Program-made: the position numbers and the translations under genes | In this document: one piece after another, positions 21,933-60,956 of the stretch | Numbering within the stretch: position 1 is the stretch's first letter | Layout: each line of letters opens with the position of its first letter | Notes under the pieces: generated by a model | Seen by the model: only the letters and a program-made list of their open reading frames with translations | The model's database searches: none | What the model was told of the DNA's origin: nothing | Origin: an uncultured Candidatus Saccharibacteria bacterium | GTDB taxonomy: Bacteria > Patescibacteriota > Minisyncoccia > Phycocordibacterales > UBA9973 | Reading direction: 5' to 3' | Assembly: GCA_964496425.1 (NCBI GenBank) | Contig: CAZBZO010000002.1 | Coordinates: 2,450-66,449 of the forward strand | DNA length: 64,000 nucleotides

Positions 21933-22045
21933 ATAGATAGAGTATTTCTCACTCGTTTTCGTTTTTGAAGTAATCCTTTATAAACAAATTCTAAAGCGAA
22001 CTGGATTTGATTCCTCCGCGCGCGAGACGACTCCTAATAATAAGT

Positions 22046-23239
22046 ATGCAACCAAAACGCACTTTTTCGCGTCCCAAGTTTGGGGCACCCCGTAGGCCTC
22101 GTGGACATGCTGCACCATCTCGTGGTCGCGGCAAGTCAGATCATTTGAATCCTGCGCTATTTATCAACAAAGCAGTCATTGTCGAGGAAGCTGATCACTT
22201 TATACCGGAGCATCGCTTCGAGGATTTTGTTATTCACGAAGCACTCAAGAAAAACATCATCACCAAAAAATATACGGCACCGACTCCGATTCAGGATCGG
22301 GCTATTCCGCATATTTTACAAGGTCGCGATGTTGTGGGTATCGCTAACACCGGTACTGGTAAAACTGCAGCCTTTCTTATTCCGCTTATCCATAAAGTAC
22401 TGACGCACAAAGATGAACGCATTTTGATCGTCGTGCCAACACGTGAGCTTGCGATTCAGATCAATCAAGAGCTTAAGACCCTCGCGCCACACCTCGGCAT
22501 TTATTCAGTGTGTTGCGTTGGTGGGGCACCGATCGGAGGACAAATCAAGGAACTCAAGTTTACCAATCAATTCATTATTGGTACTCCAGGTCGTCTCAAA
22601 GATTTGCTCGAACGCAAATGTCTTGATCTTTCTCATACCGGCACCGTCGTGCTTGACGAAGCAGATCGGATGCTTGATATGGGCTTCATCGGGGATATGC
22701 GTTTTCTAATGACGAAAATGCCCCCGATTCGCCATACGCTTTTCTTTTCAGCGACCATGAATCCGACTATCGAAAAACTTATTCATGAATTTCTTCGCGA
22801 TCCAGTTTCTATTTCGGTTAAAACCCAAGACACTGCCAAAAACGTTGATCAAGATATTGTCAAAATGAAAGCAGGGGAAGACAAGGTGGATGCTCTCGTT
22901 GCGCTTTTGAAACAACCAGAATTTAAAAAAGTACTCATCTTCGGCCGCACTAAGCATGGTGTCGAACGTCTTTCGGTCGCACTTCTTAAAAAGGGATTCA
23001 AAGCTGAGTCTATTCACGGCAACAAAAATCACAATCAACGCCAGCGTGCACTTTCATTTTTCAAAAGCGACAGCTTGCAAGTACTGGTCGCTACCGACGT
23101 AGCAGCTCGCGGACTTGATATACCAGGTGTTTCTCATGTCATCAACTTCGACATCCCTGCTACATACGAAGATTATATTCACCGCGTTGGCCGAACTGGT
23201 CGAGGGGATAAAAAAGGTAAAGCATTGACGTTCGTCTAA
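22046..23239 (+). CDS. DEAD-box ATP-dependent RNA helicase
   Basis: Q-motif/PTPIQ, Walker A AxTGTGKT, VLDEADRMLDMGF, SAT, HRVGRTGR; basic N-terminal extension (alt. start 22007). Confidence 0.9.
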   Translation: MQPKRTFSRPKFGAPRRPRGHAAPSRGRGKSDHLNPALFINKAVIVEEADHFIPEHRFEDFVIHEALKKNIITKKYTAPTPIQDRAIPHILQGRDVVGIANTGTGKTAAFLIPLIHKVLTHKDERILIVVPTRELAIQINQELKTLAPHLGIYSVCCVGGAPIGGQIKELKFTNQFIIGTPGRLKDLLERKCLDLSHTGTVVLDEADRMLDMGFIGDMRFLMTKMPPIRHTLFFSATMNPTIEKLIHEFLRDPVSISVKTQDTAKNVDQDIVKMKAGEDKVDALVALLKQPEFKKVLIFGRTKHGVERLSVALLKKGFKAESIHGNKNHNQRQRALSFFKSDSLQVLVATDVAARGLDIPGVSHVINFDIPATYEDYIHRVGRTGRGDKKGKALTFV

Positions 23240-45004: not shown

Positions 45005-46540
45005 CTAAATTCCCCGCATGACTTCGATTTTGGCACCAAGAGTATTTAAGCGCCGAGCTAAATCAGCATAGCCACGGGTAATAGAATGCACATTGCGAAG
45101 CGTTGATACGCCTTCAGCTCCGAGCATGGCGATCAAGATAGAAGCTGATGGCCGGAGTGCGGGCGGGCAGATGATTTGGGCGCCACGAAGTTTGGTGCTG
45201 CCGGTAACGAGTGCTCGATGTTGATCAAGAAGTTTTACATCTGCACCTAAACGATTGAGTTCGGTAAAATAAATGGCTCGGTTTTCCCATGACCAATCAT
45301 GAATGAGGGTAGTGCCGGTAGCAATAGCAGAAATAGGCACAAAAAACGGCAGACTATCGTTTTGAAGTCCGGGAAAGGGTTGGGTGTGGAGCTTATCATG
45401 CAGTGCGTGCAATTTCGAAGGCGCAATAGTGATGTCGACAAGCTTCGTTTTGCCGTTTTTTGAAAGATACGGTGCACTTTGTGTGTACGACTGACCCATG
45501 CGAGAGAGTTTTTCAAGTTCAAGCTCGAGAAAATCAATCGGCACTCTTTTTATCGTGAGTGTCGAATGAGTCAGGATACCAGCTGCCAGGAAAAACATAC
45601 TTTCAATCGGATCTTCGCTATTGTAGTGTTCAACAGTTTGGTTTATGTCTGCGATACCGTGCACAATAAGTGTTGTCGTGCCGATACCTTCAATGACAAC
45701 GCCCATCTTTTCGAGTAAGAAACAGACATCTTGAACTTGATAGTTTGGCGGAGCAAACTTGATCGTTGTGGTACCAGGAATACGCGCAGCAGCCGCAATC
45801 ATACATATGGCTCCTGTGTCACTTGATTCGTAGAGAATGATCGTTCGATCTTTTTTGAGATTTTTTGGACGAGTAATGTGGTAGCCGTCCTCTTTGGTAG
45901 TGATTTTCACACCGAGCGTTTCCAGACCGTAGCGATTTGAAGAAATAGTACGCTCTCCCATTTTGCATCCACCAGCATGCGGAAAAACAAATTTATCTGC
46001 GTAGTGAATAAGACTACCAAGAAAGGTGGCACTTCTGGTTTTGGTAACTGCATCTCGATCGATATGATCAAATGTCATTTTTTTACCTGGTATGATTTCT
46101 ACGGTGTCTGCTGAAAGCCACCGTACCTCAACACCGAGACTTTTCATGATAGCAATGTAACGATACACTTCATCAATCTCTGGAATGCCATGGAGGATTG
46201 TTTTGCCGCGGTTGACTAATGCCGCACAGAACATATTGATTGCTCCATTTTTTGAAGTATTGGTGGTGATTGAGCCATGGAGCTTGCGGCCGCCGTAGAT
46301 TTTGAAATCAAGCGATTCTGACAAGCCGACAAGCTTGCGCTCCAGTACTTCACCGATCTTTGTGAGCTGTTCTAGGGTCAGATTTTGACCGCCTCTTTCC
46401 ATACGGGCGACCGCGCTTTGGGAGGTACCTAAGGCTTTGGCGAAATCGCTTTGAGTCATGGATTTTTCTTCGCGGAGTTTCTTTATTCGATCCCCAATTT
46501 TCTCGGAGTCGCTTTTCTGGGCTGTTTTTGTTGATGCCAT
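45005..46540 (-). CDS. murA: fusion protein: N-terminal XRE-family HTH domain + UDP-N-acetylglucosamine 1-carboxyvinyltransferase (MurA)
   Basis: HTH_3 segment (LREEKSMTQSDFAKALGTSQSAVARMERG) followed by complete MurA (KLHGSITTNTSKNGAINMF..., active-site GGCKMGERTISS, C-terminal ITRGYADLARRLNTLGAKIEVMRG). Confidence 0.8.
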   Translation of the reverse strand: MASTKTAQKSDSEKIGDRIKKLREEKSMTQSDFAKALGTSQSAVARMERGGQNLTLEQLTKIGEVLERKLVGLSESLDFKIYGGRKLHGSITTNTSKNGAINMFCAALVNRGKTILHGIPEIDEVYRYIAIMKSLGVEVRWLSADTVEIIPGKKMTFDHIDRDAVTKTRSATFLGSLIHYADKFVFPHAGGCKMGERTISSNRYGLETLGVKITTKEDGYHITRPKNLKKDRTIILYESSDTGAICMIAAAARIPGTTTIKFAPPNYQVQDVCFLLEKMGVVIEGIGTTTLIVHGIADINQTVEHYNSEDPIESMFFLAAGILTHSTLTIKRVPIDFLELELEKLSRMGQSYTQSAPYLSKNGKTKLVDITIAPSKLHALHDKLHTQPFPGLQNDSLPFFVPISAIATGTTLIHDWSWENRAIYFTELNRLGADVKLLDQHRALVTGSTKLRGAQIICPPALRPSASILIAMLGAEGVSTLRNVHSITRGYADLARRLNTLGAKIEVMRGI

Positions 46541-46547
46541 ATTGTGG

Positions 46548-46571
46548 AAGTATATCATATATGATATACTT
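46548..46571. promoter_or_regulatory. 24-bp perfect palindrome (aagtatatcatatatgatatactt) in murA/murB divergent intergenic region; candidate operator
   Basis: perfect dyad symmetry; contains TATGAT/TATACT -10-like hexamers in both orientations; 8 bp from HTH-MurA start codon. Confidence 0.5.
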
Positions 46572-46578
46572 GGCAAGT

Positions 46579-47607
46579 ATGATAGATATGCATCACAACG
46601 TCGCACTTGCTCGGTATTCAACGTTTCGAATGGGTAGTACGGCCGCATATTTTGCCAGTGTCTCGTCTTTGCCTGAAATAGAAGAGTGTCTTTCTTTTGC
46701 AGATGCTAATAATCTTCCCGTCATTGTGTTAGGCGGGGGATCCAATACAATATTTGCCTCAGTAGAGCCGCTCAATGCTTTCGTAATAAAAATAGATAGT
46801 AAGGGCAAAAAAATTATTTCTACAAATGAGAACAGTACGCTGGTGGAGATCGGAGCCGGGGAAAATTGGGACGATGTGGTGGCATGGAGCGTAGAAAATA
46901 ATCTCTCGGGAATTGAAATGCTCTCTGCCATACCTGGTACCTCTGGAGCTACCCCCATACAAAATGTTGGCGCATACGGTGGCGAGATCAAAAATGTCCT
47001 CGTATCACTTCGGGCCTACGATAGACATTCTCGTAGCGTTGTCACGCTTTCAAACACCGACTGTGGGTTTGGGTATCGCGATAGTATTTTTAAAAAAGAT
47101 GCTCGTGACCGTTATATTATTCTTAGTATTACTTTGCGACTATCTCCCCATGCACCCGAGGCTCCAGAGTACCCAGGTGTGAAGAAGTATTTTGATGAGA
47201 AGGGAATCGTTTCGCCCACTCTTTTGCAAATCCGTGAAGCTATTGTCGCCATCCGAGCCCATAAGCTGCCAGATCCCCGGGATATAGCATCGGTGGGTTC
47301 TTTTTTTAAGAACCCGTTTATAGAGACCCAAAAAGCGCTTACGCTCAAAACGAAGTATCCAACACTCGCTGTTTTCCCAGTAAGTGAAACTCAGGCGAAG
47401 ATAGGTGCGGGATCACTGCTTGATACGCTCGGACTTCGAGGAAAAGTATTTGGCAATTTGTCACTGTATGCCGGCAATGCATTAGTGATTGTAAACAATG
47501 GTCAGACGCGACCAGAAGAGCTTTTAGAACTCAAGGAGTACATTATTTCTGAAGTAGAAAAAAAATTCGGTATTACACTTGAACCTGAACCAGTGTTTGT
47601 GACTTGA
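46579..47607 (+). CDS. murB: UDP-N-acetylenolpyruvoylglucosamine reductase MurB
   Basis: FAD-binding PCMH domain (ARYSTFRMGSTAAYF...VLGGGSN), C-terminal MurB domain. Confidence 0.85.
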   Translation: MIDMHHNVALARYSTFRMGSTAAYFASVSSLPEIEECLSFADANNLPVIVLGGGSNTIFASVEPLNAFVIKIDSKGKKIISTNENSTLVEIGAGENWDDVVAWSVENNLSGIEMLSAIPGTSGATPIQNVGAYGGEIKNVLVSLRAYDRHSRSVVTLSNTDCGFGYRDSIFKKDARDRYIILSITLRLSPHAPEAPEYPGVKKYFDEKGIVSPTLLQIREAIVAIRAHKLPDPRDIASVGSFFKNPFIETQKALTLKTKYPTLAVFPVSETQAKIGAGSLLDTLGLRGKVFGNLSLYAGNALVIVNNGQTRPEELLELKEYIISEVEKKFGITLEPEPVFVT

Positions 47608-47612
47608 TCATT

Positions 47613-47631
47613 GTGCGCGATAGAGGATTCG
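47613..47631. repeat. 19-bp exact copy of tRNA-Val 3' end (att-like island boundary)
   Basis: gtgcgcgatagaggattcg identical to 53045-53063 (3' acceptor/T-arm part of minus-strand tRNA-Val); 6 nt after murB stop. Confidence 0.8.
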
Positions 47632-47787
47632 GTCACAGATAATTTTCTGCTGAAAATTTCCGCGAGTCTCCGACGACACGATCCTCTGATCGCCCGCCTC
47701 GCGCCGCCGCGCTTTGGCTTTCTCATCCCTTTCGCATCGCAATGATGCTCCACTCGAATAGTTCCCAACTATTCTCGTGGATCATTG

Positions 47788-48008
47788 TGCACCTTAGGAA
47801 TAAAATTACGAACCCTCCATATCTGGCAAATTTCCCAAACGGTGCTGCTATATCTACTGATTCTGGAAATAGTGCGCTTGGTACTGATCCAGAATTTTGG
47901 CAGAAAGTAAGGAATGACATAGTCACTCTCAGTGAGATTATAAAGGATAGTGGGAAAGAAGACAATGAGGAGGAATTGTCATTTCTAGCACGTTATCCTG
48001 GGCAATGA
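47788..48008. repeat. ~210-bp direct repeat copy 1 flanking defence cassette (contains 71-nt 100% identical core 47895-47965; encodes small ORF)
   Basis: aligns with 51344-51556; small + strand ORF 47742..48008 and minus ORF 47723..47965 both have paralogs in copy 2. Confidence 0.8.
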
Positions 48009-48093
48009 TTCTTTTTTTTGATTATTCTCATTCAAAAGTATTGAATTTAATAAATAGCTTTATCTGCAAGAGTAAAAATGCTAAATTGCATAT

Positions 48094-49779
48094 ATGGCAA
48101 ATATCCATAACCTGAAAATCAAAAACTTTAAGGGGATCAAGGAACTGGATCATACTTTTGGTCCAGCTAACTTGATTTGCCTGGTGGGTCGCGGGGATTC
48201 TGGAAAAACAACTATTCTCGAAGCAATTGAACGTGCATTATACCCGAACTGGAATCCATCTATAAGTGATAATGATTTTTATAACTGTGACATTTCTTTG
48301 CCGCTCGAGATAGAGGTAACACTCAAGGGGATTGCCGATAAGCTATTGAGCGATAATAAATATGGACTACATATTCGTGGTCTTCATGCGGATGGAATGA
48401 CTATTTGTGATGAAATTCAAGATGGGCAAGAAAAACTTCTTACAATACTGTTTAAAGTTGAAAAAGATCTGGAACCTAAATGGTTTGTAACAAGTCATCG
48501 CCCACATCAGGAGGACATGAAAATTGACACGGGAGATCGCTCTACTTTTAATGTTTTTTTGCTATCTGATTATCTGGATAAACATTTTTCATGGAGTAAA
48601 GGAACACCATTATTCGCTTTACTTAAACAGGACGGAAATATAGCAGAAAGTTCATTGTTACTAGATGCTGTTCGAGATTTAAAGATAGGGATCGATAGAG
48701 TAGGATTTCCTCATCTAGACACAGTTATTGATAGGGTTAAGAGTTCGACACTAAAATTTGGTGTCAATATCAATAATACTAAAACTAGCATTGATATAAA
48801 GGATCTTGCCATAAAGGATAGTAAGGTAATTCTTCATGATGACTTGGTTCCTTTAAAACTTAAGGGAAAAGGTTCAAAAAGACTTATTTCTGTTGCAATC
48901 CAAACGGAATTAGCAAAAGACGGGATATTATTACTTGACGAAATAGAACAAGGCCTTGAACCTGATAGAGTTAAGCATCTTGTCAGAACTCTTTGCTGTA
49001 ATACCAACGAACAAACATTTGTGACCACTCATTCACAGCAAGTAATTGAAGAACTTGAACCAGAAAATATATTTGTTGTGAATGCCGAAAATGGCATTGT
49101 GACTATCAAGCAAACAAATAGTGCTGAAAGCGATAAATATAAGAGTCTTTTTAGAACATGCTCTGAAGCACTGTATGCAAATCGAGTCATTGTTTGTGAA
49201 GGCAAAACTGAGCTTGGATTTTGCCGGTCCATAGACAAACAAAGAGTCCTATCATCATTACCATCAATGGCCATGAAGGGTGTTGTGTACTCCCTAGGTG
49301 GTGGTGATGGATTTAACAGAAAGGCAAAACAACTGAAAGAAAATCTTGGTAAAGAAGTTTGTGTTTTTTGTGATTCAGATAAAGATGAGGATATTGGTGA
49401 ACCAACAAAAGTTGAATTGAGAGCTTCAGGTATAGATATTTTTGATTGTGAGACACTTAATAATTTAGAACAACAGATTTCAAAAGATCTACCATGGGAA
49501 GGGATCGAGGAGCTTTGCAACTATGTTGTTCAAGATAAAAACATTAAGAAAGAATTTGCTCTTTATTTTAAAGAATTGACTACTTCTAGTTGGAATAACG
49601 CTGATACTCCTGAAAATAGAAAACTCTTTTCCGATGCAGCAAAAAAATATTCTTGGTTTAAAAGAATTGATCACGGTGAGAAACTAGGGGACATCTGTCT
49701 TAAATATAAGAGTCAATTAGCAGAAGACTCACGGCTAAAAGTGATTATCTCCGGAATAAATTCCTGGATAGAAATATGA
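48094..49779 (+). CDS. OLD-family ABC-type ATPase with C-terminal TOPRIM nuclease domain (class 2 OLD; GajA-like)
   Basis: Walker A GRGDSGKTT, ABC signature/Walker B LLLDEIEQGLEP...H, TTHSQQ; TOPRIM glutamates VIVCEGKTE and DxD CDSDKD. Confidence 0.75.
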   Translation: MANIHNLKIKNFKGIKELDHTFGPANLICLVGRGDSGKTTILEAIERALYPNWNPSISDNDFYNCDISLPLEIEVTLKGIADKLLSDNKYGLHIRGLHADGMTICDEIQDGQEKLLTILFKVEKDLEPKWFVTSHRPHQEDMKIDTGDRSTFNVFLLSDYLDKHFSWSKGTPLFALLKQDGNIAESSLLLDAVRDLKIGIDRVGFPHLDTVIDRVKSSTLKFGVNINNTKTSIDIKDLAIKDSKVILHDDLVPLKLKGKGSKRLISVAIQTELAKDGILLLDEIEQGLEPDRVKHLVRTLCCNTNEQTFVTTHSQQVIEELEPENIFVVNAENGIVTIKQTNSAESDKYKSLFRTCSEALYANRVIVCEGKTELGFCRSIDKQRVLSSLPSMAMKGVVYSLGGGDGFNRKAKQLKENLGKEVCVFCDSDKDEDIGEPTKVELRASGIDIFDCETLNNLEQQISKDLPWEGIEELCNYVVQDKNIKKEFALYFKELTTSSWNNADTPENRKLFSDAAKKYSWFKRIDHGEKLGDICLKYKSQLAEDSRLKVIISGINSWIEI

Positions 49780-51182
49780 GTGAGACATTTGATGTAAGAT
49801 CTTTTGCAACCGCGCGGGATAATGTTTTAATTGCTCCAGCAGGTTTTGGCAAAACCCATTCAATTAGTGAATGTCTTAAGTACACTCATGGTAGACAACT
49901 TATTCTAACGCATACTCAAGCTGGTGTCGCTTCTATTAAAGACAAGCTACAAAAATGTTATATCAGTAAAGACAAATACAGTGTGGAGACCATATCTAGT
50001 TTTGCTAAAAGGTATGTGGTTTCCTTCGATAATTCAACAAGTATTCCAAATGAAACAGATGATAACTTCTATCCTTATTTCATTGAACAGGCAACCAATT
50101 TGTTATCTTCAATCTTAGTACAGGATATAATAAAGCTTTCCTACTCAGGCTTGTTTGTTGATGAATATCAAGACTGTACTATTAAGCAACATAATTTAAT
50201 ATTGATATTGGCCGGAATACTGCCAACCCACGTTTTAGGTGATCCTTTACAAGGAATTTTTGGTTTTGCTGGCGATCTAGTTGATCTAAATGACTCTCCT
50301 CAGATGGGTAGATTCAATACAGTCCATTATTTGAAAGTCCCTCATCGGTGGATCATTGGGGGTAATAAGCAACTTGGAACGGATTTACTACAAATAAGAG
50401 AGAAATTGCAATTAAATCTTGAAATTGAATTAAAGCACTTTCCATCCATAGAATTTAGGCAAGGAGGTTATTTAGATCATTATAATTTCATAATGGAAAC
50501 CCTAAAAAACTGTGATAGCGTCTTAGTAATTGATCCTAATTCAATGAGATTAAGTAACAGGGAAAAGTTTGTTGTTACTTTCAAGTATATTCCCTTACTA
50601 ATTGAAGCATTTGATGGGAAGGACTTTTATTCTTCCGCGATCCATTTTGATAATAAAAACAATCTTCCTGCTAGTGAGGTTTTACACAAGTTTATTGAAG
50701 GTAAGTTTTCTAATTTAGATAATTGGTACGATAAGACTAATAGGAGATTCAGAAAAAAAAGAAACCCTGTTGAAGAGAAGGAGTTGTTCGTGATAAAACA
50801 ACTTATGAGTAGGTTGGAATTAAGTTACTCACTAATGGATTTGAAAGAGGTCATATTTAGAATAAGAAATTTAAAGGGTGTTAACTGCGCGAGAAGGGAT
50901 CTTTTAAGTTCTCTGAGTAGATCAATGGAAGATGCTCATTATTCAAGAATCTCAGTACTGGAAGCAATGAGAAACAATCGAAATGGGATAAGGAGATTAG
51001 GTAGAAAAATGTATGGCAAATGTGTAGGTACAACTCTTCTAACTAAAGGGTTGGAGTTTGAAACCGTAATTATATTAGATGCAGATAAATTTAATGACCC
51101 CAAGAATTTTTATGTTGCAATATCAAGATGTATTAAGAGGCTTATTATACTTGCCAGTAATAGTAAATTAAATCCGTATTAA
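49776..51182 (+). CDS. short UvrD-like superfamily-1 helicase (GajB-like)
   Basis: Walker A APAGFGKTH, motif II VDEYQD, C-terminal motif VI-like TLLTKGLEFETVIILDAD; 4-bp overlap with upstream ATPase. Confidence 0.7.
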   Translation: MSETFDVRSFATARDNVLIAPAGFGKTHSISECLKYTHGRQLILTHTQAGVASIKDKLQKCYISKDKYSVETISSFAKRYVVSFDNSTSIPNETDDNFYPYFIEQATNLLSSILVQDIIKLSYSGLFVDEYQDCTIKQHNLILILAGILPTHVLGDPLQGIFGFAGDLVDLNDSPQMGRFNTVHYLKVPHRWIIGGNKQLGTDLLQIREKLQLNLEIELKHFPSIEFRQGGYLDHYNFIMETLKNCDSVLVIDPNSMRLSNREKFVVTFKYIPLLIEAFDGKDFYSSAIHFDNKNNLPASEVLHKFIEGKFSNLDNWYDKTNRRFRKKRNPVEEKELFVIKQLMSRLELSYSLMDLKEVIFRIRNLKGVNCARRDLLSSLSRSMEDAHYSRISVLEAMRNNRNGIRRLGRKMYGKCVGTTLLTKGLEFETVIILDADKFNDPKNFYVAISRCIKRLIILASNSKLNPY

Positions 51183-51343
51183 CCAAGAATAGATTCTTTG
51201 TGTTATTATTACTTTTTTTGAATTGCTGAGCTTGTTGAAGTTGATTGTGAGAGGTTCAAATTTTGTTTAGGTAACCTTCAATTACAAGAACATTTGACAA
51301 GATTCTGTAAAGGAGGGAGCATTTGCTATTTATGACAATTGGG

Positions 51344-51556
51344 TGCACCTTAGGAAAAAAATTATGCCCTCCATATCTGGCAAATTTCCCAAACGGTGCG
51401 GCTATACCTACTGATCCTGGAAATAACATCCTAGCTACAGATCCAGCATTTTGGCAGAAAGTAAGGAATGACATAGTCACTCTCAGTGAGATTATAAAGG
51501 ATAGTGGGAAAGAAGACAAACCGGATGAATTGTCGTTTCTAGCAAAACTTCCCTAG
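51344..51556. repeat. ~210-bp direct repeat copy 2 flanking defence cassette (71-nt identical core 51450-51520)
   Basis: see copy 1; small ORF 51323..51556 paralogous to 47742..48008. Confidence 0.8.
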
Positions 51557-51591: not shown

Positions 51592-51828
51592 ATGGATACC
51601 TCTATACCAAATGATTTAAGAAAGTGGAGGAAGGCTAAGGGATTTCGACAGCTTGATGTAGCATGTAAACTAGGATTTTCTAGCACTGATCGAATTTCGA
51701 AGTGGGAGAAGGGAATTTCCTATCCTCATCTGATTAATCTCTTTAAGCTCTGCGCGATATATGAGGTAATGCCGCAGGAGTTGTATGGAGAAGTCTTGAG
51801 ACAAGTTTATCAATCACAAAATAAATAA
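51592..51828 (+). CDS. XRE-family helix-turn-helix transcriptional regulator
   Basis: 78 aa; LRKWRKAKGFRQLDVACKLGFSSTDRISKWEKG HTH_3 pattern. Confidence 0.7.
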   Translation: MDTSIPNDLRKWRKAKGFRQLDVACKLGFSSTDRISKWEKGISYPHLINLFKLCAIYEVMPQELYGEVLRQVYQSQNK

Positions 51829-51830
51829 TT

Positions 51831-52748
51831 TTAGTAAGTCTTATTGAGCAAGGGGTCAAAGACCATTTTGTAATTAGAATCTTTTACAAAATCATGCTCA
51901 TCGAATTCAAGAATAGTTTGTTTCAGGTTAAAATTATACGCTTCTGTTTTGGATTGAATAAAAAAACTTACTCCCTCAGCATTGCCAAAAAAATGCCTTT
52001 GTGGATTCGTTACATTTTCATGAAGTAGTTTTGCATGGAATATTTCACTATTAAAGTAATGAAGTATTCTCTTGTGAACTTCCCCAAAATAATCTTTACC
52101 GGAATCAGTGCCGTTAAAATATTCTCCGTGTACCAATCTATGCCTTAATCCAGATCGAGAATTTCCTTTTATGCCAAATAATTCGATTTTAAGCTCTTTC
52201 CCTAGTATTAGTTCAATAAAGTTAAAGTCCTTTTTGTCATTTCTTTTGGCAAGAGCTTCAATGGCTGAAAACATGAGCAGCAACTTAGAAGAATACCCAG
52301 TAGCATTGGTTGCATCATTCCAATAAAAGTAGAATTCATCGGGTATCTGGAGGTTCCTATGAAGTACATCCAATGCCTTCAGATGGTCTTCCATGAACAT
52401 TAGTCCAACAGGCGACCTATCTTTCACAATTCTTATAAATGCTGTATCAGAATCTTCCCTATGAATAAGAAAAGATTCATTCACAAAATCAATATAGCAT
52501 TGAGAGATAAGGGCAATCTTGGGAATAATCTGAAGTAGTTTTAATCTAAATTCCTTGAAAGCTTCATGGAAGTCAGCTGCTTCAAATGTTGCTTCAGCCA
52601 GCCAGGCATCTCCTTTCCATCCATATGCATGATTGAAATCCCATTGTGAAAGGGTTATGTCATCAATCGCAAATGATGCTGGATTATCCTTTCCGATAAT
52701 TGCATTGTGAGCAAGAGTTGTAATGCGATGCTGAATTTTATACTTCAT
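51831..52748 (-). CDS. hypothetical protein, island-encoded (possible Rx4H/HEPN-like motif RHRLVH)
   Basis: 305 aa ORF, AT-rich codon usage like neighbouring Gabija genes; no confident domain. Confidence 0.4.
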   Translation of the reverse strand: MKYKIQHRITTLAHNAIIGKDNPASFAIDDITLSQWDFNHAYGWKGDAWLAEATFEAADFHEAFKEFRLKLLQIIPKIALISQCYIDFVNESFLIHREDSDTAFIRIVKDRSPVGLMFMEDHLKALDVLHRNLQIPDEFYFYWNDATNATGYSSKLLLMFSAIEALAKRNDKKDFNFIELILGKELKIELFGIKGNSRSGLRHRLVHGEYFNGTDSGKDYFGEVHKRILHYFNSEIFHAKLLHENVTNPQRHFFGNAEGVSFFIQSKTEAYNFNLKQTILEFDEHDFVKDSNYKMVFDPLLNKTY

Positions 52749-52942
52749 AAATCTTTTTGCTTCTCCATAAATGTATCAACAAGTAATTTAGCGAGATACA
52801 TCAATTGAATATTTTCTTCTTGTTCCTTAGCTGATAAGCGTTCAAAGGCTTGGACTCCCGCGTGCTTTATAGCTGACTCCTTCGCATACAGATAACCTTC
52901 TAAATCCATTCTTGCATTATTCATCAGCGTACTATAGCGCAT
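52745..52942 (-). CDS. hypothetical small protein, translationally coupled upstream of 305-aa ORF
   Basis: 65 aa; stop overlaps start of downstream ORF (ATGA). Confidence 0.35.
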   Translation of the reverse strand: MRYSTLMNNARMDLEGYLYAKESAIKHAGVQAFERLSAKEQEENIQLMYLAKLLVDTFMEKQKDL

Positions 52943-53045
52943 AGTAGGAGAAAGTTCGAATCCCTTTAACCTCCACCATGTTTTTGGTGTTTCTGCAAAA
53001 TAAAAAATCCTTAGGAAGTAAGGATTTTTGAGTAATACCTTAAGG

Positions 53046-53118
53046 TGCGCGATAGAGGATTCGAACCTCTGGCCTACCCCACGTCAAGGGGTCGCTCTAC
53101 CAACTGAGCTAACCGCGC
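53046..53118 (-). tRNA. tRNA-Val (anticodon GAC)
   Basis: Reverse complement folds: acceptor gcgcggt/atcgcgc, D-loop agctcagttggtagagc, anticodon loop ttGACgt, T-arm agagg-ttcgaat-cctct. Confidence 0.85.
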
Positions 53119-53207: not shown

Positions 53208-56200
53208 ATGCTTTTTTTTAATCAAAAAAAAATAAAAGACCAAGAAAACAATCAAATTCAGGATGTTTTTTTTGATTCAGCCAAAAGCATCATCAATCTT
53301 AAAAAAAAGACGCCATTTATTGAATTTCACTTTGAAAATTCAATTATTCTATTTAAAAAATACGAACGAAAATTGTTTGTCACCCTTGCAATATTTTTTG
53401 GAGTTGCAATTTTTAGTATGTTTTATGTCACCACGGCGAATGTTGCTGTTTTTTATTCAAGTAAATGTCTTGGGGGGTGGGAACATCCAGAAAACGCCGA
53501 AGGTAAGCCATCGCTTTCTTCTGGAGCTCATGCAGAAGATTTTACCAAAAATAATTCTGCATATGTGAAAGAACATTCTGCCTCTATGTACTGCGGCGAA
53601 TTTGACGGCGTAGTTCCCGTGGATGCTATACCTAAAACTTTCAAGCTTTCTCTGGCCTGGTCTGTTGATAATGGAACCGTTCGTCATCGCGAACCAAAAC
53701 CGTTTGATCTTTCCACTGAGTTTGAACCAGATACGAGTACCGCGGTAACTGATGAGAATAAAAATGATGATATTTTAAACGAAGGTGGTGAACAGGAAGA
53801 AATTATAACGGATGAGTCTAGAGAGAGTACTGACATCCTACAAGTAGAAGAGCGTGATAGTTCTCCTGAAACCGATCCTCAAGATGAGGAAGCATCCAGT
53901 GAGGATATTTCCTCAGAACAGAGTGATGAATCTTCAGACCAGCAAACATTCTTTGAGCGATTATTTACTAAAAAAGTATTTGCCCAAGAAGAAAATTCTG
54001 AAGGTACGAGCTCTGAGAGTTCTTCAAATAACAATGACTCAACATCTACCGAAAATGGATCTGAGAGCTCGGACTCAAGCTCGGATAATAAGAATGGTTC
54101 CGAACCATCAGGCGATGCTCCACAAGATTCTGAAAGCATAACAGAAAACGAGCCTTCAAACGTTCCGACTCAAGGATCGGAACAGAATAGAGATACTTCC
54201 GTACGGGATCAGAGAGAAATAACAGAGAAGAAAAATCGAATAAAAAAGGAAACAGGAAGCATCCCCGAAACGGAGCCAGTGGTAGACGGGTTTATGGAAG
54301 TTTCTTATACATTAGATGGAGCAACCTGGAACAGTCTGGGACAAGTCAGTATGAATAATTGGCAAGACGTATCTTTCGATATCCCACTTACCGCCTGGGC
54401 GGACCTTTCAACATTTCAAATCGGTTTTCAAACCCTAGCCAATCTTGATGAGTCACCGGCAATATATATAGACAGCGTGAGCGTCGAAGTGCAATATGAA
54501 ACAGAACAAGAAAACTTCAATCTTGAAGTTCCTACTGTAAAAATAATAGATTCGTCTGAAAATATCATTTTCAGCGACATGACAACATTCTCTTCCCAAG
54601 ACGAACCGTTCTTCGATGTAGTTAATCCAAAATATAGTGAGAGTGATTTACTTTTACTTATTAATGAAGGCAAAATTGAGATTGTAGAAGATACAGATAA
54701 GATGATAGATCTTTGGGAAATGCCCAGTATGCTCGAAGATCCGGTAAAAAATAGTATTGAATCAATCAAAAGTATTGTTAATCCAACAGTGTCGCATACA
54801 CCTTCTCAGATAGAGGAAGAAACTTTCTCTTCTCAAGATGAAGAGCAAGGTTCGGCGGGGCCACGCCGGAAGTCTACTCTTGAAATCATCGAAGGTTCTC
54901 CTCCTGACGAGCAAGCGCAAGAAGAGACCACAAACGGAGCGATTCAATTAAAAGAAAATACTTCCGAAGAATCTCCTGCAATTGAAAGTGATGGTGAGAA
55001 TATAGATCAATCAGAAGAAGGAGATAATGAGATTATATCAATGCTCCCCAAACAGAGCCTTGATCGTTATTGGGGAAATAGAATAAAATCTGAAAAAACA
55101 AACTCAATAATAAGTAATCAGAGTGGAGGTACTTCGAAAGCTTTTTTATTTGGGCCATATATTGCTCATGCGCAAGAAGAAGAAGCTCTGCATCTGAATG
55201 ATATTGTTGCGGAAGTGTTTGATTCTCAAGGTAAAACAGATATACAGACAAGTATAACAACCGTGATTATCGGTGGAGTACAAAAGAGAAGAGTCAATAT
55301 AGAGCGACCACAGCAATTCCGACCAGGAACGTATACCTTGCGGATAACATTGAGAGGAGAAAATGCAAATATTATTTCAGAGCAGAATTTTACGTGGGGA
55401 GTACTTGCGATCAATATTGACCGCTCAATAGAATTGCCTGGGGAAGATGCCTATATTCAAATGGCCGTGCTCAACGATCTTGGGCATACGCTGTGTAACG
55501 CTGATCTTTCACTTGAAATCAAAAGTCCTAGTGGTATCGTTACTCATTTCAATACAAGTGACGCTACTATTGTGTCTGCACAAGAATGTGGCGTAGATAA
55601 TATTATCCCAGTTCCAGACTATTTCAGTCACTACACTGTTTCAAACGAGATTGGTGTTTACTCAATGACACTAACTGCCGAGACGTTAAACGGCACAAAA
55701 ACGATTACTGATTCATTTGAAACAAAGGCATCTCCACTATTTGATGTTGTTCGTACCGGACCTACCAGAATAAATCCAACTGCTGGATATCCTGTGACTA
55801 TTGAAATTACCCCAAAGGCAGATTGGAATGGTGTTATAACCGAAACCGTACCGATTGATTTTACGATTTCACCGCCGATGAGAAGTATTGCATATGACAG
55901 TATTGAAATAGTAAACAATAAAAAAAATATTACGTGGAATATATCCTTGATTAAGGGTGAGACAACAACAATCGGCTATTACTTTGATGCACCGGACGAA
56001 AGTCCTCAATTTTATTTGTTGGGTCCCCTTGATTTTAGCCTACTTTCATTTAAAGGTTTGAAAACTACTTCTGTTTTTCAAGAAGCACGTGAGTGGCAAA
56101 TTGCAAGTGACGTTGCGACTATCGTACTTTTAACGACTGGTACGAGCTGGAGTGTGCCTGTAGACTTTGATCCAGCAAACAATACGATCGAAGGTATTGG

Positions 56201-59200
56201 CGGCGGCGGCGGCGGTGGTGGTGGAACGAATGGAACAGGAGCACAGGGTCGTGGTGGTGGCGGAGCTGGTGGTGGAGGTGAATATAGAAAAATTTCGAAT
56301 TTCAATCCAGGCGGTGCTGGATCAATATCATATGTAATTGGACAAGGTGGAACTTTCGGTGCAGCAAATACAAGTGGTAGTAATGCTACTGATACGACAT
56401 GGAATAGTACATCACTTGTTGCAAAAGGTGGACTTTTAGGAACGAATACTGGAGCAGGCACTGGTGGTACAGGTGGTGCTGGTGGTACTGGTGGTACTGG
56501 AGCTGCAGGAAATAATAATGGTGGTAAAGGTGGCCGTGGAGGAAACCGTTCTGTGACATTAGGCGGTGGTGGCGGTGGTGGAGGAGGTGCCGGTGGGACA
56601 AGTGCAGTTGGGGGCGCAGGAACAAACGGTACTGCTGGTAGTACTGGGGGTGCAGGAGGTGCGGGAGGTAATGCTTCTGGTGGAACAGCAGGAACGAGTA
56701 ATGGTGGGGCTGGAGGAGCTGGTACTGTTTGGACCGACAACTCAGGTGGCGCCAATAATGGTATACAAGGTGGTGCTGGTGGTGGTGGCGGAGGAGGACT
56801 TGCCAGTGCCGGTGCCGGTGGTGCATCAGGTACTGCTGGTAATTATGGAGCTGGCGGTGGCGGTGGTGCTGGTGGAGGTTCAGGTTCTTCAGCTGGAAGT
56901 GCTGGCAAGGCAGGAGCAAATGGTATTATTGCTATTACCTATACTCCGTTTACTATTTCAGGGACTGCAAATGGTAATGATACCGCAACTGTAAGAGTTG
57001 CTATTAATGGAACTTTACAAGCTCAAACAGGCACTATTTCTGCTAGTGCTTGGTCTATAAGTGGAGTCACTTTACCAACGTCTGGGGATATTATTACTGT
57101 TTGGGTAGATAACGTAAGTGACGCAAATGAATCAAGTGCGGTAACCAAGTGGAGTTCTGGTAGTGTTTCTAGTATGGTGCTTAACACCAATTTTTTAACA
57201 ATTGGAAGTAATCAAAATACAAGTTTGACGGTCACTAACCTTGGTCAATATGATTCTGACAATGATGAGGACATTATGCATACTGCGAATAGTGGGGCTT
57301 TCTTAGTGCAAGCATCTGGCAATACATATACAGGAGAAACCATCACAATAGCGTCAAGTAATACACTAACAGTTAGTACCGGTGAATCACTTACAACTGA
57401 AAAGATGATTATAAGTGGAACAGTAACTTCGTCAGGTACTGCCACCTATACATTTACTGCAACATCTGGGACACTACTTACGAGAACTGGAACATTCACT
57501 CAAAGTAATTCAACGGTTAATGTTACATCAGCATCAGGAACCCCTACATTCCTCTCTGCTGCAGTCACATTTCATATTCTTACTATTAATGCAGCTGCAA
57601 CGGTCATAAATGCTGGCGCAGTGATTACTATTGATGACACAAGTGGAGCTTTGCTCTACATTCAATCTGGAGTTCTCAATGACGATGGTTTGGGAATATC
57701 AACTTCGGCTTCTACCGCTAATACATTGCAAATAGATTCTGGTGGTACGATGTGTTTAGGTGGATCAAGTTCAAATACATCTGCAACTTGCAACACTGGC
57801 ACCGTATCAACGACGACAAGGTCTATGCCAGCATTTAGTACGTATACATTAAATGCTTCTTCGACTATTATTTATTTATCAGACGCAGACACAACTATTT
57901 CATCTACACCAACCTATGGTAATTTGAAATTACAGCCAAAATTCGTAACTACTGCACGTACCTATACCTTGAATGGCGCTATGACCATTAATGGTAATTT
58001 TGATATAAATCCCGAAGAATCAGGTGCGGGTACTCCTGCGCTTACAGTTAATGCCGGAGGTACCATTACAGTTGCGACAACAAAAACAATAACTTTGACA
58101 CGATCAAATAGTTCAAGTAGCTCTCTTGATCTAAGGCCCTCATCAACTGATTATAATCTTTCAACAGGGTTTTTGGTTGTGGCCACTGGTGGCACGCTTG
58201 ACGCAGCCAGTGCTTCGTCAACGATTACGCTTACAGGTACTTCTGGAACGCTATTTACAAAAGCTGGCACATTTACCCAAGGCACTTCTGATGTGGTTGT
58301 CACCAGTGCTTCAGGGACACCAACATTATTATCTGCCGGAACTACATTTCACAGGTTGACGATTAATAGCGCTGCAACTGTCATAAATGCAGGCGCAGTG
58401 ATTACTATGTCGAGTGCTGATGCCAATAACAGACTCTATATTCAAACTGGTGTGCTCAACGATGGAGGTAGTCAAATTGTTGGCACGGCAAATGGGACAA
58501 TGCTCATAGATGGAGGGGCAATGCTCTGTATTAATGGCACGGTGGGTGGGACCAATGCGACATGTAATAGCGGAGCAGCTGTTAATGGTGGATCAGGTGG
58601 ATTCCCAACCAACTATACCACTGGCAATATTACTCTTGCTGTTACTTCTACGGTTGCCTATCTTGGAAATGGTGGTTTGAGCATTTCATCCACGCCTACG
58701 TACGGGAATTTAAAATTGATCCCGGTACTAGCTTCAACAAATAAAAGTTATACATTTTCTGGTGTTACAACGATAAATGGAGATTTTACGATCCTACCTT
58801 CAGGTGCCGCACTGGAATTAAAAGTAAAGTTAGGCGGTGATCTAACGGTGGCTGCAACTAAAACGACAACAATTTCAAATAGCGGAGTTCCAACCTCTTT
58901 GTTGCAGCTGCGTCCAGTGAGTACAGATTATAATCTGACCACTGGCTTTTTGAGTGTCAGTAGTGGCTCCGAGCTCGATGCAACTCTCAGTGCATCGACT
59001 ATTACAATTACTGGGACATCAGGTACGCTGTATACAAATGCAGGGACATTTAGTAACGGAAGTACAGAAGTAAACTTTTCAGGTAATGGTAGTGCGACGA
59101 TCAATTCCGGTAGTATTACATTTAATAATTTTAGAAGTTCTGGTACGGGCACAAAAAGCCTCGGTGTTTCAGGAATTTCTGTTGCGAATAATATATTTAT

Positions 59201-60956
59201 TACCGCAGGTACGTTTAATCCAAACGGAGTAACTATGACAGGTTCAGGAATCAGTAACGTACTAACGGCGACTAATAGTACTTTATTGGTGGATAAAAAT
59301 ACCACTACAGCATTTTCGGATAATTATTCAAGTATGGAAACAGTAACACTTGGTACCGGTTCGACGGTTGACTACATGGGAAGTGGTTCGCAGACAATTA
59401 GTAGTTCGTTCGGTTATGAAAATATAAAAACCTCAACAGGAGGTACCAAGACTTTAAATGGTACTACTGTTGCAAATGGATCAATTACTATTACTACATC
59501 AACACTCACCACTGCAGGTAATACACTGACTGCTCTGAGCATTTCAGTTGATGGAACAAGTACATTTACTGCTAGTTCGACATCTACGGTCACCATTACT
59601 GGCACGACAGGACCAGTTTTTACGCTTACCTCAGGAGGCGCATTTAATGCAAATTCTTCATCTTTTGTTTTTAACGGCAATGCGACCATGACGCTTCTTT
59701 CTGGTACATTCACCGGCGGTAATGCGTTTAACGACGTCACATTCTCTCCAACGGTTTCGGTAGGTGGTAATAAAACCTACACTCCAAGTTCTACGGCAGT
59801 AGCGATAAATGGCAATTTTACTATTAATCCTTCCGCATCGGTTATCACAACAACTTTGATAGTAAATTTAGCCGCAAATCTTACTGTTGCAACAAATAAA
59901 ACAATAACAATCCAAGGTACCGGTACAGGATTAGGTAGAATTGATTTACAGTCATTTGCCTTGAGCGCGGGTTCGATGTCAATTGCGTCAACCGGCACGG
60001 TCCTTGGTAATACCGGGAGTATTACATTAGCTGGCAGTTGGACGAATGGTGGTACTTTTACTGAAGGAACATCGACAGTGACTTTAAATAGTGGCACAAC
60101 AGCAGTCGTGACAGGTACGACAACATTTTACAATCTTACTATTACTCATACTGCAGCCAAAGAAGTTGATTTCGCAACTTCGGGTACTCCGATTTTTCAC
60201 GTGACGAATGCTTTTGTTGTAACGGGAAGTTCGGGCAATCTTATTAAATTATATTCAGATTCCGCCGGTACTCAGTGGGAATTTCATCCGACAGGCACGG
60301 CCTCGGTTGATTACGCTGATGTGAAAGATGGTGGTTGTCAGTCGGGCGCTATTACTATTACGCCCACAAACTCGATCAACAGCGGCAACAATGATTCGTG
60401 TTGGTTTTTTGCAAGTGCATTATCGTTTGATATTGATACAGCATTAACTGATGCCGAGTCTGCTTCGCCGTACTCAGTAGCGTTGGGTACACTTACCACT
60501 TCGGATACCAGGGTCTCAGGCAGTACTGATAGCATCAATTATATTTGGCTTGATATTAGCAGCAGTGCGCCTGGTGGGGCGGTTATAACGGTCCTCAATG
60601 CCAATGGATCAAACGGCCTCGTTTCTACCTCAAAACCAACAAGTACCATAAATAGCACGGATGGTTCAGTAGCGGACGGAACGGAAAATTATGGGTTGTG
60701 CGTTGTCTCAGTATCTACAAGTTCTGGTACCTTAGATGATGAAGGGGGATATGATGGAGACACGTGCGCGGGTAACAGCGAAACTAATAATGTTCAGGAG
60801 CTTAGTTCGTCCGGTGAGATACTACTTGATACCAATGGAGCCGCGATTACTGCCGGAAGGGCACAAATTGCCGTAAATGCATCCATAAGTTCCGTAACTC
60901 CTGCACATGATGATTATACCGATACGCTTATATTTTTAGTAACAGGAACGTTTTAG
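53208..60956 (+). CDS. giant (2582 aa) repeat-rich cell-surface protein with N-terminal TM, acidic/Ser-rich region, Gly-rich low-complexity block, Thr/Ser/Gly-rich ~270-aa tandem repeats and a conserved ~190-aa C-terminal domain
   Basis: single uninterrupted ORF; repeats e.g. TSASGTPTFLSAAVTFHILTINAAATVINAGAVIT / TSASGTPTLLSAGTTFHRLTINSAATVINAGAVIT; C-terminal domain homologous to C-terminus of ORF 61121..62260. Confidence 0.8.
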   Translation: MLFFNQKKIKDQENNQIQDVFFDSAKSIINLKKKTPFIEFHFENSIILFKKYERKLFVTLAIFFGVAIFSMFYVTTANVAVFYSSKCLGGWEHPENAEGKPSLSSGAHAEDFTKNNSAYVKEHSASMYCGEFDGVVPVDAIPKTFKLSLAWSVDNGTVRHREPKPFDLSTEFEPDTSTAVTDENKNDDILNEGGEQEEIITDESRESTDILQVEERDSSPETDPQDEEASSEDISSEQSDESSDQQTFFERLFTKKVFAQEENSEGTSSESSSNNNDSTSTENGSESSDSSSDNKNGSEPSGDAPQDSESITENEPSNVPTQGSEQNRDTSVRDQREITEKKNRIKKETGSIPETEPVVDGFMEVSYTLDGATWNSLGQVSMNNWQDVSFDIPLTAWADLSTFQIGFQTLANLDESPAIYIDSVSVEVQYETEQENFNLEVPTVKIIDSSENIIFSDMTTFSSQDEPFFDVVNPKYSESDLLLLINEGKIEIVEDTDKMIDLWEMPSMLEDPVKNSIESIKSIVNPTVSHTPSQIEEETFSSQDEEQGSAGPRRKSTLEIIEGSPPDEQAQEETTNGAIQLKENTSEESPAIESDGENIDQSEEGDNEIISMLPKQSLDRYWGNRIKSEKTNSIISNQSGGTSKAFLFGPYIAHAQEEEALHLNDIVAEVFDSQGKTDIQTSITTVIIGGVQKRRVNIERPQQFRPGTYTLRITLRGENANIISEQNFTWGVLAINIDRSIELPGEDAYIQMAVLNDLGHTLCNADLSLEIKSPSGIVTHFNTSDATIVSAQECGVDNIIPVPDYFSHYTVSNEIGVYSMTLTAETLNGTKTITDSFETKASPLFDVVRTGPTRINPTAGYPVTIEITPKADWNGVITETVPIDFTISPPMRSIAYDSIEIVNNKKNITWNISLIKGETTTIGYYFDAPDESPQFYLLGPLDFSLLSFKGLKTTSVFQEAREWQIASDVATIVLLTTGTSWSVPVDFDPANNTIEGIGGGGGGGGGTNGTGAQGRGGGGAGGGGEYRKISNFNPGGAGSISYVIGQGGTFGAANTSGSNATDTTWNSTSLVAKGGLLGTNTGAGTGGTGGAGGTGGTGAAGNNNGGKGGRGGNRSVTLGGGGGGGGGAGGTSAVGGAGTNGTAGSTGGAGGAGGNASGGTAGTSNGGAGGAGTVWTDNSGGANNGIQGGAGGGGGGGLASAGAGGASGTAGNYGAGGGGGAGGGSGSSAGSAGKAGANGIIAITYTPFTISGTANGNDTATVRVAINGTLQAQTGTISASAWSISGVTLPTSGDIITVWVDNVSDANESSAVTKWSSGSVSSMVLNTNFLTIGSNQNTSLTVTNLGQYDSDNDEDIMHTANSGAFLVQASGNTYTGETITIASSNTLTVSTGESLTTEKMIISGTVTSSGTATYTFTATSGTLLTRTGTFTQSNSTVNVTSASGTPTFLSAAVTFHILTINAAATVINAGAVITIDDTSGALLYIQSGVLNDDGLGISTSASTANTLQIDSGGTMCLGGSSSNTSATCNTGTVSTTTRSMPAFSTYTLNASSTIIYLSDADTTISSTPTYGNLKLQPKFVTTARTYTLNGAMTINGNFDINPEESGAGTPALTVNAGGTITVATTKTITLTRSNSSSSSLDLRPSSTDYNLSTGFLVVATGGTLDAASASSTITLTGTSGTLFTKAGTFTQGTSDVVVTSASGTPTLLSAGTTFHRLTINSAATVINAGAVITMSSADANNRLYIQTGVLNDGGSQIVGTANGTMLIDGGAMLCINGTVGGTNATCNSGAAVNGGSGGFPTNYTTGNITLAVTSTVAYLGNGGLSISSTPTYGNLKLIPVLASTNKSYTFSGVTTINGDFTILPSGAALELKVKLGGDLTVAATKTTTISNSGVPTSLLQLRPVSTDYNLTTGFLSVSSGSELDATLSASTITITGTSGTLYTNAGTFSNGSTEVNFSGNGSATINSGSITFNNFRSSGTGTKSLGVSGISVANNIFITAGTFNPNGVTMTGSGISNVLTATNSTLLVDKNTTTAFSDNYSSMETVTLGTGSTVDYMGSGSQTISSSFGYENIKTSTGGTKTLNGTTVANGSITITTSTLTTAGNTLTALSISVDGTSTFTASSTSTVTITGTTGPVFTLTSGGAFNANSSSFVFNGNATMTLLSGTFTGGNAFNDVTFSPTVSVGGNKTYTPSSTAVAINGNFTINPSASVITTTLIVNLAANLTVATNKTITIQGTGTGLGRIDLQSFALSAGSMSIASTGTVLGNTGSITLAGSWTNGGTFTEGTSTVTLNSGTTAVVTGTTTFYNLTITHTAAKEVDFATSGTPIFHVTNAFVVTGSSGNLIKLYSDSAGTQWEFHPTGTASVDYADVKDGGCQSGAITITPTNSINSGNNDSCWFFASALSFDIDTALTDAESASPYSVALGTLTTSDTRVSGSTDSINYIWLDISSSAPGGAVITVLNANGSNGLVSTSKPTSTINSTDGSVADGTENYGLCVVSVSTSSGTLDDEGGYDGDTCAGNSETNNVQELSSSGEILLDTNGAAITAGRAQIAVNASISSVTPAHDDYTDTLIFLVTGTF
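56200..56920 (+). repeat. Gly-codon (GGN) low-complexity tract inside giant ORF
   Basis: runs of ggcggcggcggtggtggt...; antisense proline-rich ORFs here are artefacts. Confidence 0.85.

Follow-up and report, generated by a model that had tools for sequence, protein, structure and literature searches.

Introduction

Gabija is an anti-phage system whose reported occurrence exceeds 15% of sequenced genomes (PMC10781630). Its model representative is that of Bacillus cereus VD045 (structures 8SM3, 8U7I, 8X5I and 8J4T), a two-gene operon in which gajA is followed by gajB. The two B. cereus proteins are reported to form a 4:4 complex (PMC10781630, PMC10822852), GajA is a TOPRIM endonuclease that nicks or cleaves DNA and is inhibited at physiological nucleoside triphosphate (NTP) levels (PMC8136825), and GajB senses DNA ends and hydrolyses (d)ATP and (d)GTP (10.1101/2023.05.02.539174). 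Phage protection and nucleotide-inhibited DNA nicking or cleavage are known for B. cereus and related systems only. According to a preprint, Gabija sensitivity is linked to RecBCD-antagonising phage proteins that bind DNA ends (PMC12407980). Here we analyse two overlapping genes, coding for proteins of 561 and 468 amino acids (aa), in a 64,000-nucleotide stretch of contig CAZBZO010000002.1 (hereafter the window, meaning the whole stretch analysed). We conclude that they very probably constitute a complete, selectively maintained Gabija system, acquired horizontally on a tRNA-Val island by a Patescibacteria (Paceibacteria-like) host and working, as homology suggests, by a B. cereus-like mechanism.

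In class 2 of the OLD family, by definition, the nuclease gene and a gene for a UvrD/PcrA/Rep-like helicase stand in tandem (PMC10781630), which is the arrangement of the two genes described here. Class 1 OLD nucleases, such as phage P2 Old and the Thermus scotoductus protein (TsOLD, 6P74), have the same architecture of ATPase plus TOPRIM domain, but are encoded by stand-alone genes, whereas the nuclease gene studied here is strictly coupled to a helicase gene. Septu PtuA and PARIS AriA possess the same AAA_15/AAA_21-type ATPase head, but they differ in being devoid of a TOPRIM domain, in their partners (the HNH protein PtuB, and AriB) and in scoring far more weakly against the protein of the window.

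Identification of a complete gajAB pair

A first-pass annotation, made by a model from the sequence alone, had described the pair as Gabija-like, and its open reading frame (ORF) coordinates and every motif that it quoted are present in the translations of both proteins. In the 561-aa protein these motifs are GRGDSGKTT (residues 32-40), LLLDEIEQGLEP (279-290), TTHSQQ (311-316), VIVCEGKTE (365-373) and CDSDKD (426-431), containing the ATPase residues K38 (Walker A), D282/E283 (Walker B) and H313 and the TOPRIM residues E369, G402-G404 and D427-S-D429. The 468-aa protein carries GFGKTH (23-28), DEYQD (129-133) and KGLEFETVII (424-433).

Both proteins match dedicated PADLOC profiles from end to end. 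The 561-aa protein aligns with the GajA model PDLC04168 at 1e-156 (residues 1-559 on model positions 1-567 of 570) and the 468-aa protein with the GajB model PDLC04173 at 4e-119 (residues 10-466 on positions 6-468 of 471), while the older models PDLC00086 (GajA, 1e-28) and PDLC00122 (GajB, 7e-21) also match. Weaker matches of the 561-aa protein to Old (8e-22), AriA (1e-19), AbiLi (1e-19) and PtuA (2e-18) arise because the ATPase head is shared. Pfam assigns AAA_15/AAA_21/SMC_N to the 561-aa protein and aligns its residues 360-429 with positions 1-67 of the 67 in OLD-like_TOPRIM. PADLOC, Pfam, the profile alignment and the fold match presented below agree on the proposed combination of an OLD-type ATPase with a TOPRIM domain.

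The UvrD-like superfamily 1 (SF1) character of the 468-aa protein is likewise supported. Pfam reports UvrD-helicase/AAA_19, the best Protein Data Bank (PDB) sequence match is B. cereus GajB (BcGajB; 1.3e-6, 494 aa), and the helicase motifs are invariant in the clade, namely Walker A (P21-T27), DEYQD (129-133), GD..Q (155-159), KGLEF (424-428) and R451. AGFGKT (22-27) and DEYQD occur without variation in GajB-like sets of 76 and 20 sequences. The suggestion that this GajB is short was not upheld, as its 468 aa compare with 494 aa in BcGajB, 471 positions in the profile and a clade median of 478 aa.

Conservation of the nuclease follows the same pattern. Across 33 GajA homologues, the invariant positions are K38, D282, E283, H313, E369, G370, T372, E373, G402, G404, D427 and S428, with D429 kept in at least 90%; together with the conservation in GajB, this marks the quoted motifs as more than chance occurrences. 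In the AlphaFold2 (AF2) model of the 561-aa protein, which has a predicted local distance difference test score (pLDDT) of 79.6, a strand at 364-368 precedes E369 and a strand at 421-425 precedes the DSD motif, so that in this model both acidic positions are placed as a TOPRIM domain predicts.

Relationship to the B. cereus system

The canonical Bacillus gajAB locus was fetched by means of a BcGajB fragment; its GajB is 100% identical to the fragment and its GajA (BcGajA) is 578 aa long. Residue-level comparison was made by hhalign profile-profile alignment, using a GajA clade profile built from 33 sequences. This profile aligns with Bacillus GajA at Prob 97.8 (E 8e-13, 397 columns), pairing K38 with K35, E369 with E379, G403 with G409 and D427-S-D429 with D432-N-D434, and the active-site residues of BcGajA are E379, G409 and D432/D434 (PMC10781630). 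The TOPRIM acidic residues singled out in the first-pass annotation, E369 and D427/D429, therefore align with catalytic positions. For GajB, the clade profile aligns with its Bacillus counterpart at Prob 98.8 (E 6e-17).

Structure prediction points the same way. When the GajA AF2 model was compared with the PDB by Foldseek, the top four matches were all B. cereus GajA chains (8u7i_A, 8x5i_D, 8sm3_A and 8x5i_B; E 4e-18 to 3e-17, prob 1.00), as expected for the proposed OLD ATPase plus TOPRIM fold. Identity in these structural alignments is 16-17%, and the template modelling (TM) score of ~0.42 reflects a differing domain arrangement. TsOLD (6P74; fifth, E 9e-17) and the retron Eco8 OLD protein come next.

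The pair therefore resembles B. cereus Gabija in gene order, in the ABC ATPase plus TOPRIM make-up of GajA with aligned Walker A lysine, catalytic glutamate, glycine and DxD, in the SF1 UvrD-like GajB with Walker A and DEYQD, and in size (561/468 aa here, 578/494 aa there). It differs in its Walker B motif, which is DE here and EE in Bacillus GajA, in its low identity and in its Patescibacteria host. Two GajA segments that would be the counterparts of the dimerisation inserts of the B. cereus 4:4 assembly, 159-190 and 232-256, are modelled with low confidence (pLDDT <50). Despite its great sequence distance from the B. cereus model, this Gabija clade retains the same catalytic residues. The pair had also been proposed as a divergent variant of Gabija; its clade is indeed far from BcGajA, yet it has PADLOC models of its own and at least 324 members in genomes of GTDB species, and the present pair is one more member of the PDLC04168/PDLC04173 clade, without substantive difference. 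The identification is correct, but this is an ordinary Gabija system of a clade already covered by standard defence-annotation profiles.

Conservation, synteny and selection

Relatives were collected by scanning one genome per GTDB species, and synteny was assessed in the best 80 of them. A GajB homologue starts within ~80 nucleotides (nt) after the gajA stop in 79 of these 80 loci, the single exception being cut by a contig end. At the locus itself the gajB ATG and the gajA TGA share the four nucleotides ATGA. This pairing, taken with the end-to-end matches of both proteins to their models, establishes the GajA/GajB gene architecture that had been suggested. Most of the best 80 loci belong to Bacteroidota, and the others include Planctomycetota, Nitrospirota, Cyanobacteria, Proteobacteria, Ignavibacteriota, two Patescibacteria metagenome-assembled genomes (MAGs) and one Nanoarchaeota MAG. 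The last of these (L051, JAQICZ010000001.1, 177-3244) carries gajAB of the same clade, at 43% (GajA) and 40% (GajB) identity, on a 3.7-kb contig; for this DPANN archaeal pair, possible explanations are transfer between domains among ultra-small cells and an artefact of binning.

The nearest relative among those listed is a Saccharibacteria MAG (L004), with 79-80% protein identity in GajA and 73% in GajB. Against L004, dN/dS is 0.07 for gajA and 0.08 for gajB, values to be read with dS close to saturation. Based on the full-length ORFs, the retained coupling and the low dN/dS, we conclude that the genes are intact, coupled and under purifying selection. A second, independent NCBI assembly contig (L001) is 99.95% identical and has the same island junctions, demonstrating that the arrangement is not a chimeric assembly.

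The tRNA-Val island

The gajAB pair lies in a 5.45-kb island delimited by a 19-nt direct repeat, which is the 3' end of a tRNA-Val gene and its exact copy (Table 1). The two copies are identical at 19/19 positions, none would be expected by chance, and no further copy was found in the window, even when 2 mismatches were allowed. Such a repeat at both borders is a hallmark of elements that integrate site-specifically into tRNA genes, and gives substance to the earlier description of the island as tRNA-associated. The description of the pair as AT-richer than its surroundings also holds, with a GC content of 0.348 in gajAB, 0.358 in the island and 0.436 in the rest of the window. Along the sequence, GC is 0.34-0.37 over 48-53 kb and ~0.44 in the flanks, and GC at third codon positions is 0.27-0.29 in gajA and gajB as compared with 0.39-0.46 in murB and topA. 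Besides gajAB, the island contains a 78-aa helix-turn-helix (HTH) gene, a 305-aa orphan gene and a 65-aa ORF; the last is without a known family match and was not seen beside the 305-aa homologues inspected.

Table 1. Features of the gajAB island and its borders, in window coordinates.
Feature	Position	Strand	Product length	Description
Left border	47613-47631			Att-like repeat, identical over 19 nt to the tRNA-Val 3' end, 6 nt past the murB stop
Repeat copy 1	47787-47990	+		Ends ~100 nt before gajA; promoter-like site 47914-47941
gajA	48094-49779	+	561 aa	Class 2 OLD-family nuclease: ABC-type ATPase and C-terminal TOPRIM
gajB	49776-51182	+	468 aa	SF1 UvrD-like helicase; start overlaps the gajA end by 4 nt
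Repeat copy 2	51343-51544	+		Ends 48 nt before the HTH gene; promoter-like site 51468-51495
Xre-type HTH_3 gene	51592-51828	+	78 aa	Pfam HTH_3 1.2e-8; NCBIfam RstR-family repressor below cut-off
305-aa gene	51831-52748	-	305 aa	Uncharacterised family, invariant R202-x4-H207
65-aa ORF	52745-52942	-	65 aa	Overlaps the 305-aa gene start by 4 nt; 59-aa gene in the L001 record
tRNA-Val(GAC)	53044-53118	-		ARAGORN; Rfam tRNA 68.5 bits; 3' end 53045-53063 is the right repeat copy

Comparison with the nearest relative is informative about how the pair moves. Nucleotide similarity between L004 and the window is restricted to gajAB (48090-51145), and in L004 (11105-12601) the genes that come after gajAB encode a 131-aa protein weakly matching Terminase_2, a 317-aa tyrosine integrase and tRNA-Lys(TTT). 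The gajAB module therefore does travel on tRNA islands that carry an integrase. A second integrase lies upstream in L004 (5162-6124), and the locus resembles a mosaic made up of integrative elements.

Two small features were observed at the left end of the island of the window. The 155 nt between the left att-like copy and repeat copy 1 (47632-47786) appear by eye to be GC-richer than the rest of the island, and this stretch ends in a strong hairpin at ~47749-47780 (CCACTCGAATAGTT-CCC-AACTATTCTCGTGG).

Proposed mechanism and alternative functions

We propose that the island entered the 3' end of tRNA-Val(GAC) through site-specific recombination, and that its integrase either has since been lost or was never carried. 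By analogy with B. cereus, the two proteins would be predicted to form a GajA4:GajB4 complex in which cellular NTP levels restrain the TOPRIM nuclease of GajA. Phage replication, by depleting nucleotides or exposing DNA ends, would release this nuclease, which may then nick or cleave DNA by two-metal catalysis using E369 and D427/D429. GajB would be expected to detect the DNA ends so produced and to hydrolyse (d)ATP and (d)GTP, leading to deeper depletion and an aborted infection. The conserved catalytic machinery is the part of this scheme observed here; assembly, trigger and phenotype are extrapolated.

A number of results weigh against the interpretation of the pair as a Gabija system on an integrated island. 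At the level of similarity, the OLD-like_TOPRIM match scores 22.5 bits, slightly under the gathering cut-off of 23.2, and the GajB profile alignment with BcGajB is limited to the N-terminal 1A region. BcGajA was not reached at E<=0.01 in the PDB by phmmer with the full-length protein or by the 33-sequence clade profile, both of which instead matched PtuA, the retron Ec83 ATPase and, in its N-terminal part, TsOLD. Neither the C-terminal 222 aa of GajA nor a TOPRIM-only profile gave a PDB match, so that the TOPRIM domains of GajA and of BpOLD/TsOLD were missed. With regard to the island, no integrase-like ORF was found between 47632 and 53043 in the ORF list or by PADLOC, Pfam and further family scans, so that the island is best described either as a remnant without an integrase or as an element mobilised in trans. 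The predicted empty-site junction of murB and tRNA-Val was not found in Joint Genome Institute (JGI) metagenome contigs by an exact-match scan with zero mismatches allowed, and it is the repeat alone that points to integration. Finally, for this clade the anti-phage activity, the formation of a complex and the sensing of nucleotides are presumed from a system that is only 16-17% identical in structural alignment.

An OLD nuclease and a helicase might instead serve mainly in DNA repair, in replication-fork processing or in stabilising or excluding a mobile island, which we consider improbable. Such a role would be favoured by the resemblance of OLD nucleases and UvrD-type helicases to enzymes of DNA repair and by the sparse repair repertoires of genomes of the candidate phyla radiation (CPR), to which the host belongs. 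It should also be considered that few class 2 OLD proteins have been functionally assayed (PMC10781630) and that the present clade is known from sequence alone. However, the pair resides on an acquired, AT-rich, tRNA-flanked island next to an orphan toxin-like gene, it is accompanied by an integrase in L004, its top profile matches are defence-system models, and its patchy distribution across unrelated phyla is that of defence genes and unlike that of core repair genes.

It is still less probable that the pair is a decaying relic of a dead island whose genes no longer work. The island is without an integrase, and the 204-nt direct repeats on either side of gajAB (Table 1) could delete the pair by recombination, both of which would suit a relic. 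Against this stand two ORFs of full length relative to their profiles, catalytic residues that are all intact, the coupled ATGA overlap, the low dN/dS relative to the nearest homologue and the identical sequence carried by three independent assemblies. That the 561-aa protein comes from another system (PARIS AriA, Septu PtuA, AbiL, a retron class 3 OLD or class 1 P2 Old), with the helicase a mere neighbour, can be dismissed almost entirely, since the PADLOC matches to Old, AriA, AbiLi and PtuA that favour it, like the first place of PtuA and the retron Ec83 ATPase in the PDB sequence searches, are answered by coverage of the shared ATPase motifs only, at least 130 orders of magnitude below GajA, by a TOPRIM domain that PtuA and AriA lack and that here aligns with that of GajA, by a GajB-type helicase partner in 79 of 80 loci rather than AriB, PtuB or a reverse transcriptase, and by the first place of GajA in the fold search.

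Overall, hidden Markov model, profile-profile, fold and synteny evidence supports the core of the first-pass annotation, namely a Gabija pair on an AT-rich, tRNA-associated island of a reduced-genome bacterium. The locus is a cleanly bounded, complete Gabija system on a tRNA-targeted island in an ultra-small Patescibacteria genome, and it opens no new question.

Flanking repeats and a candidate regulator

The 204-nt direct repeats that bracket gajAB are 89.7% identical, with 73 nt in one unbroken identical block and a 2-nt indel between the copies. Both contain a promoter-like site, ATGACA-16-GATTAT with a TG-extended -10, overlapped by the palindrome TGAC-ATA-GTCA. No further copies were found in the window or in the fetched loci, and no copy of the repeat core was found in metagenome and viral contigs by exact match. 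The most economical reading is that the repeats are a shared promoter/operator or a recombination scar. A structured RNA was considered and rejected, as fold z-scores were -2.2, +0.1, -1.3 and -0.9, structure common to the copies was absent and Rfam gave no match to the repeat at E<=1. The coding signal is weak, and a conserved small gene was judged unlikely given the 2-nt indel, ~14 of 18 substitutions being non-synonymous in the plus-strand frame, and no family match.

The 78-aa HTH protein encoded downstream of repeat copy 2 is a possible regulator of the island. Its homologues adjoin gajAB in few other loci (L045, L081 and L056). We note that AATGACATAGTCACT may be a candidate binding sequence for this protein. 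One could speculate that the gajAB cassette is a regulated, excisable module, sharing a repressor with the HTH gene and gained or lost through recombination between the repeats, and also that this clade is triggered differently from the B. cereus system, the latter because it is only 16-17% identical to BcGajA and because CPR cells have minimal DNA-repair machinery; we regard this combined proposal as doubtful.

An independent contig of 3461 nt (L002, Logan SRR10036058) starts within repeat copy 1 (47936) and ends within copy 2 (51396). These ends most likely arose because the assembly broke at the repeat, although they may instead reflect removal of the cassette between the two copies, by excision or loss.

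The 305-aa orphan protein

The family of the 305-aa protein comprises at least 340 proteins. All carry the annotation hypothetical, and several of the named members come from CPR lineages. Its homologue in one genome neighbours an EcoRI-type methylase, a GmrSD/HNH protein and a DUF3644 protein, and in another genome a DUF5677 protein, while one homologue instead sits among housekeeping-type genes. Structural matches of the protein are weak, and we tentatively put forward a HEPN-like toxin, as a lead only. We also asked whether it could be a divergent integrase, and rejected this on finding no BLASTP similarity to the L004 integrase and no Pfam, NCBIfam or PHROG match. The protein is an independent passenger of the island, outside Gabija. 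With its invariant Rx4H motif and frequent siting among restriction-type genes, this family is the sole element of the locus that might repay study.

Host and other genes of the window

For the topoisomerase I of the window, identity is 77-83% with proteins that their sources assign to Candidatus Paceibacterota/Pacebacteria, Nomurabacteria or the Patescibacteria group, and we therefore conclude that the host is a CPR bacterium. This placement in the Patescibacteria/CPR accords with the small, reduced genome that had been surmised. Obligate symbiosis of the host would be expected from what is generally known of this group. An anti-phage system in such a genome had been called noteworthy, but it is not surprising, since a survey of 3004 CPR MAGs reported that, per genome, defence systems are fewer than in other phyla whereas their density per Mb is higher, and highest in Paceibacteria (PMC12259885). 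The present locus adds one data point to the published view that CPR bacteria have dense, mobile defence repertoires.

The rest of the window is of housekeeping character and includes topA, an aminoacyl-tRNA synthetase gene, genes for penicillin-binding proteins, murA, murB and tsaD. No second defence system was found in a PADLOC scan of ten further ORFs of the window, the sole match being that of a generic DEAD-box helicase (22007-23239) to the helicase parts of several models.

Two further genes near the island were noted. The MurA-like protein encoded at 45005-46648 on the minus strand combines an EPSP_synthase domain (residues 119-532) with an N-terminal Xre-type HTH_3 domain (residues 55-106); such an HTH-MurA fusion is unusual for a cell-wall enzyme, and the ORF may have been called too long at its upstream end. 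Directly beyond tRNA-Val, a giant plus-strand ORF of 2582 aa (53208-60956) encodes what is presumably a surface protein, with an acidic Ser/Glu-rich N-terminal part, Thr/Ser-rich repeats and a long Gly-rich low-complexity block, at which GC reaches 0.51 and GC skew 0.37 (56-57 kb).

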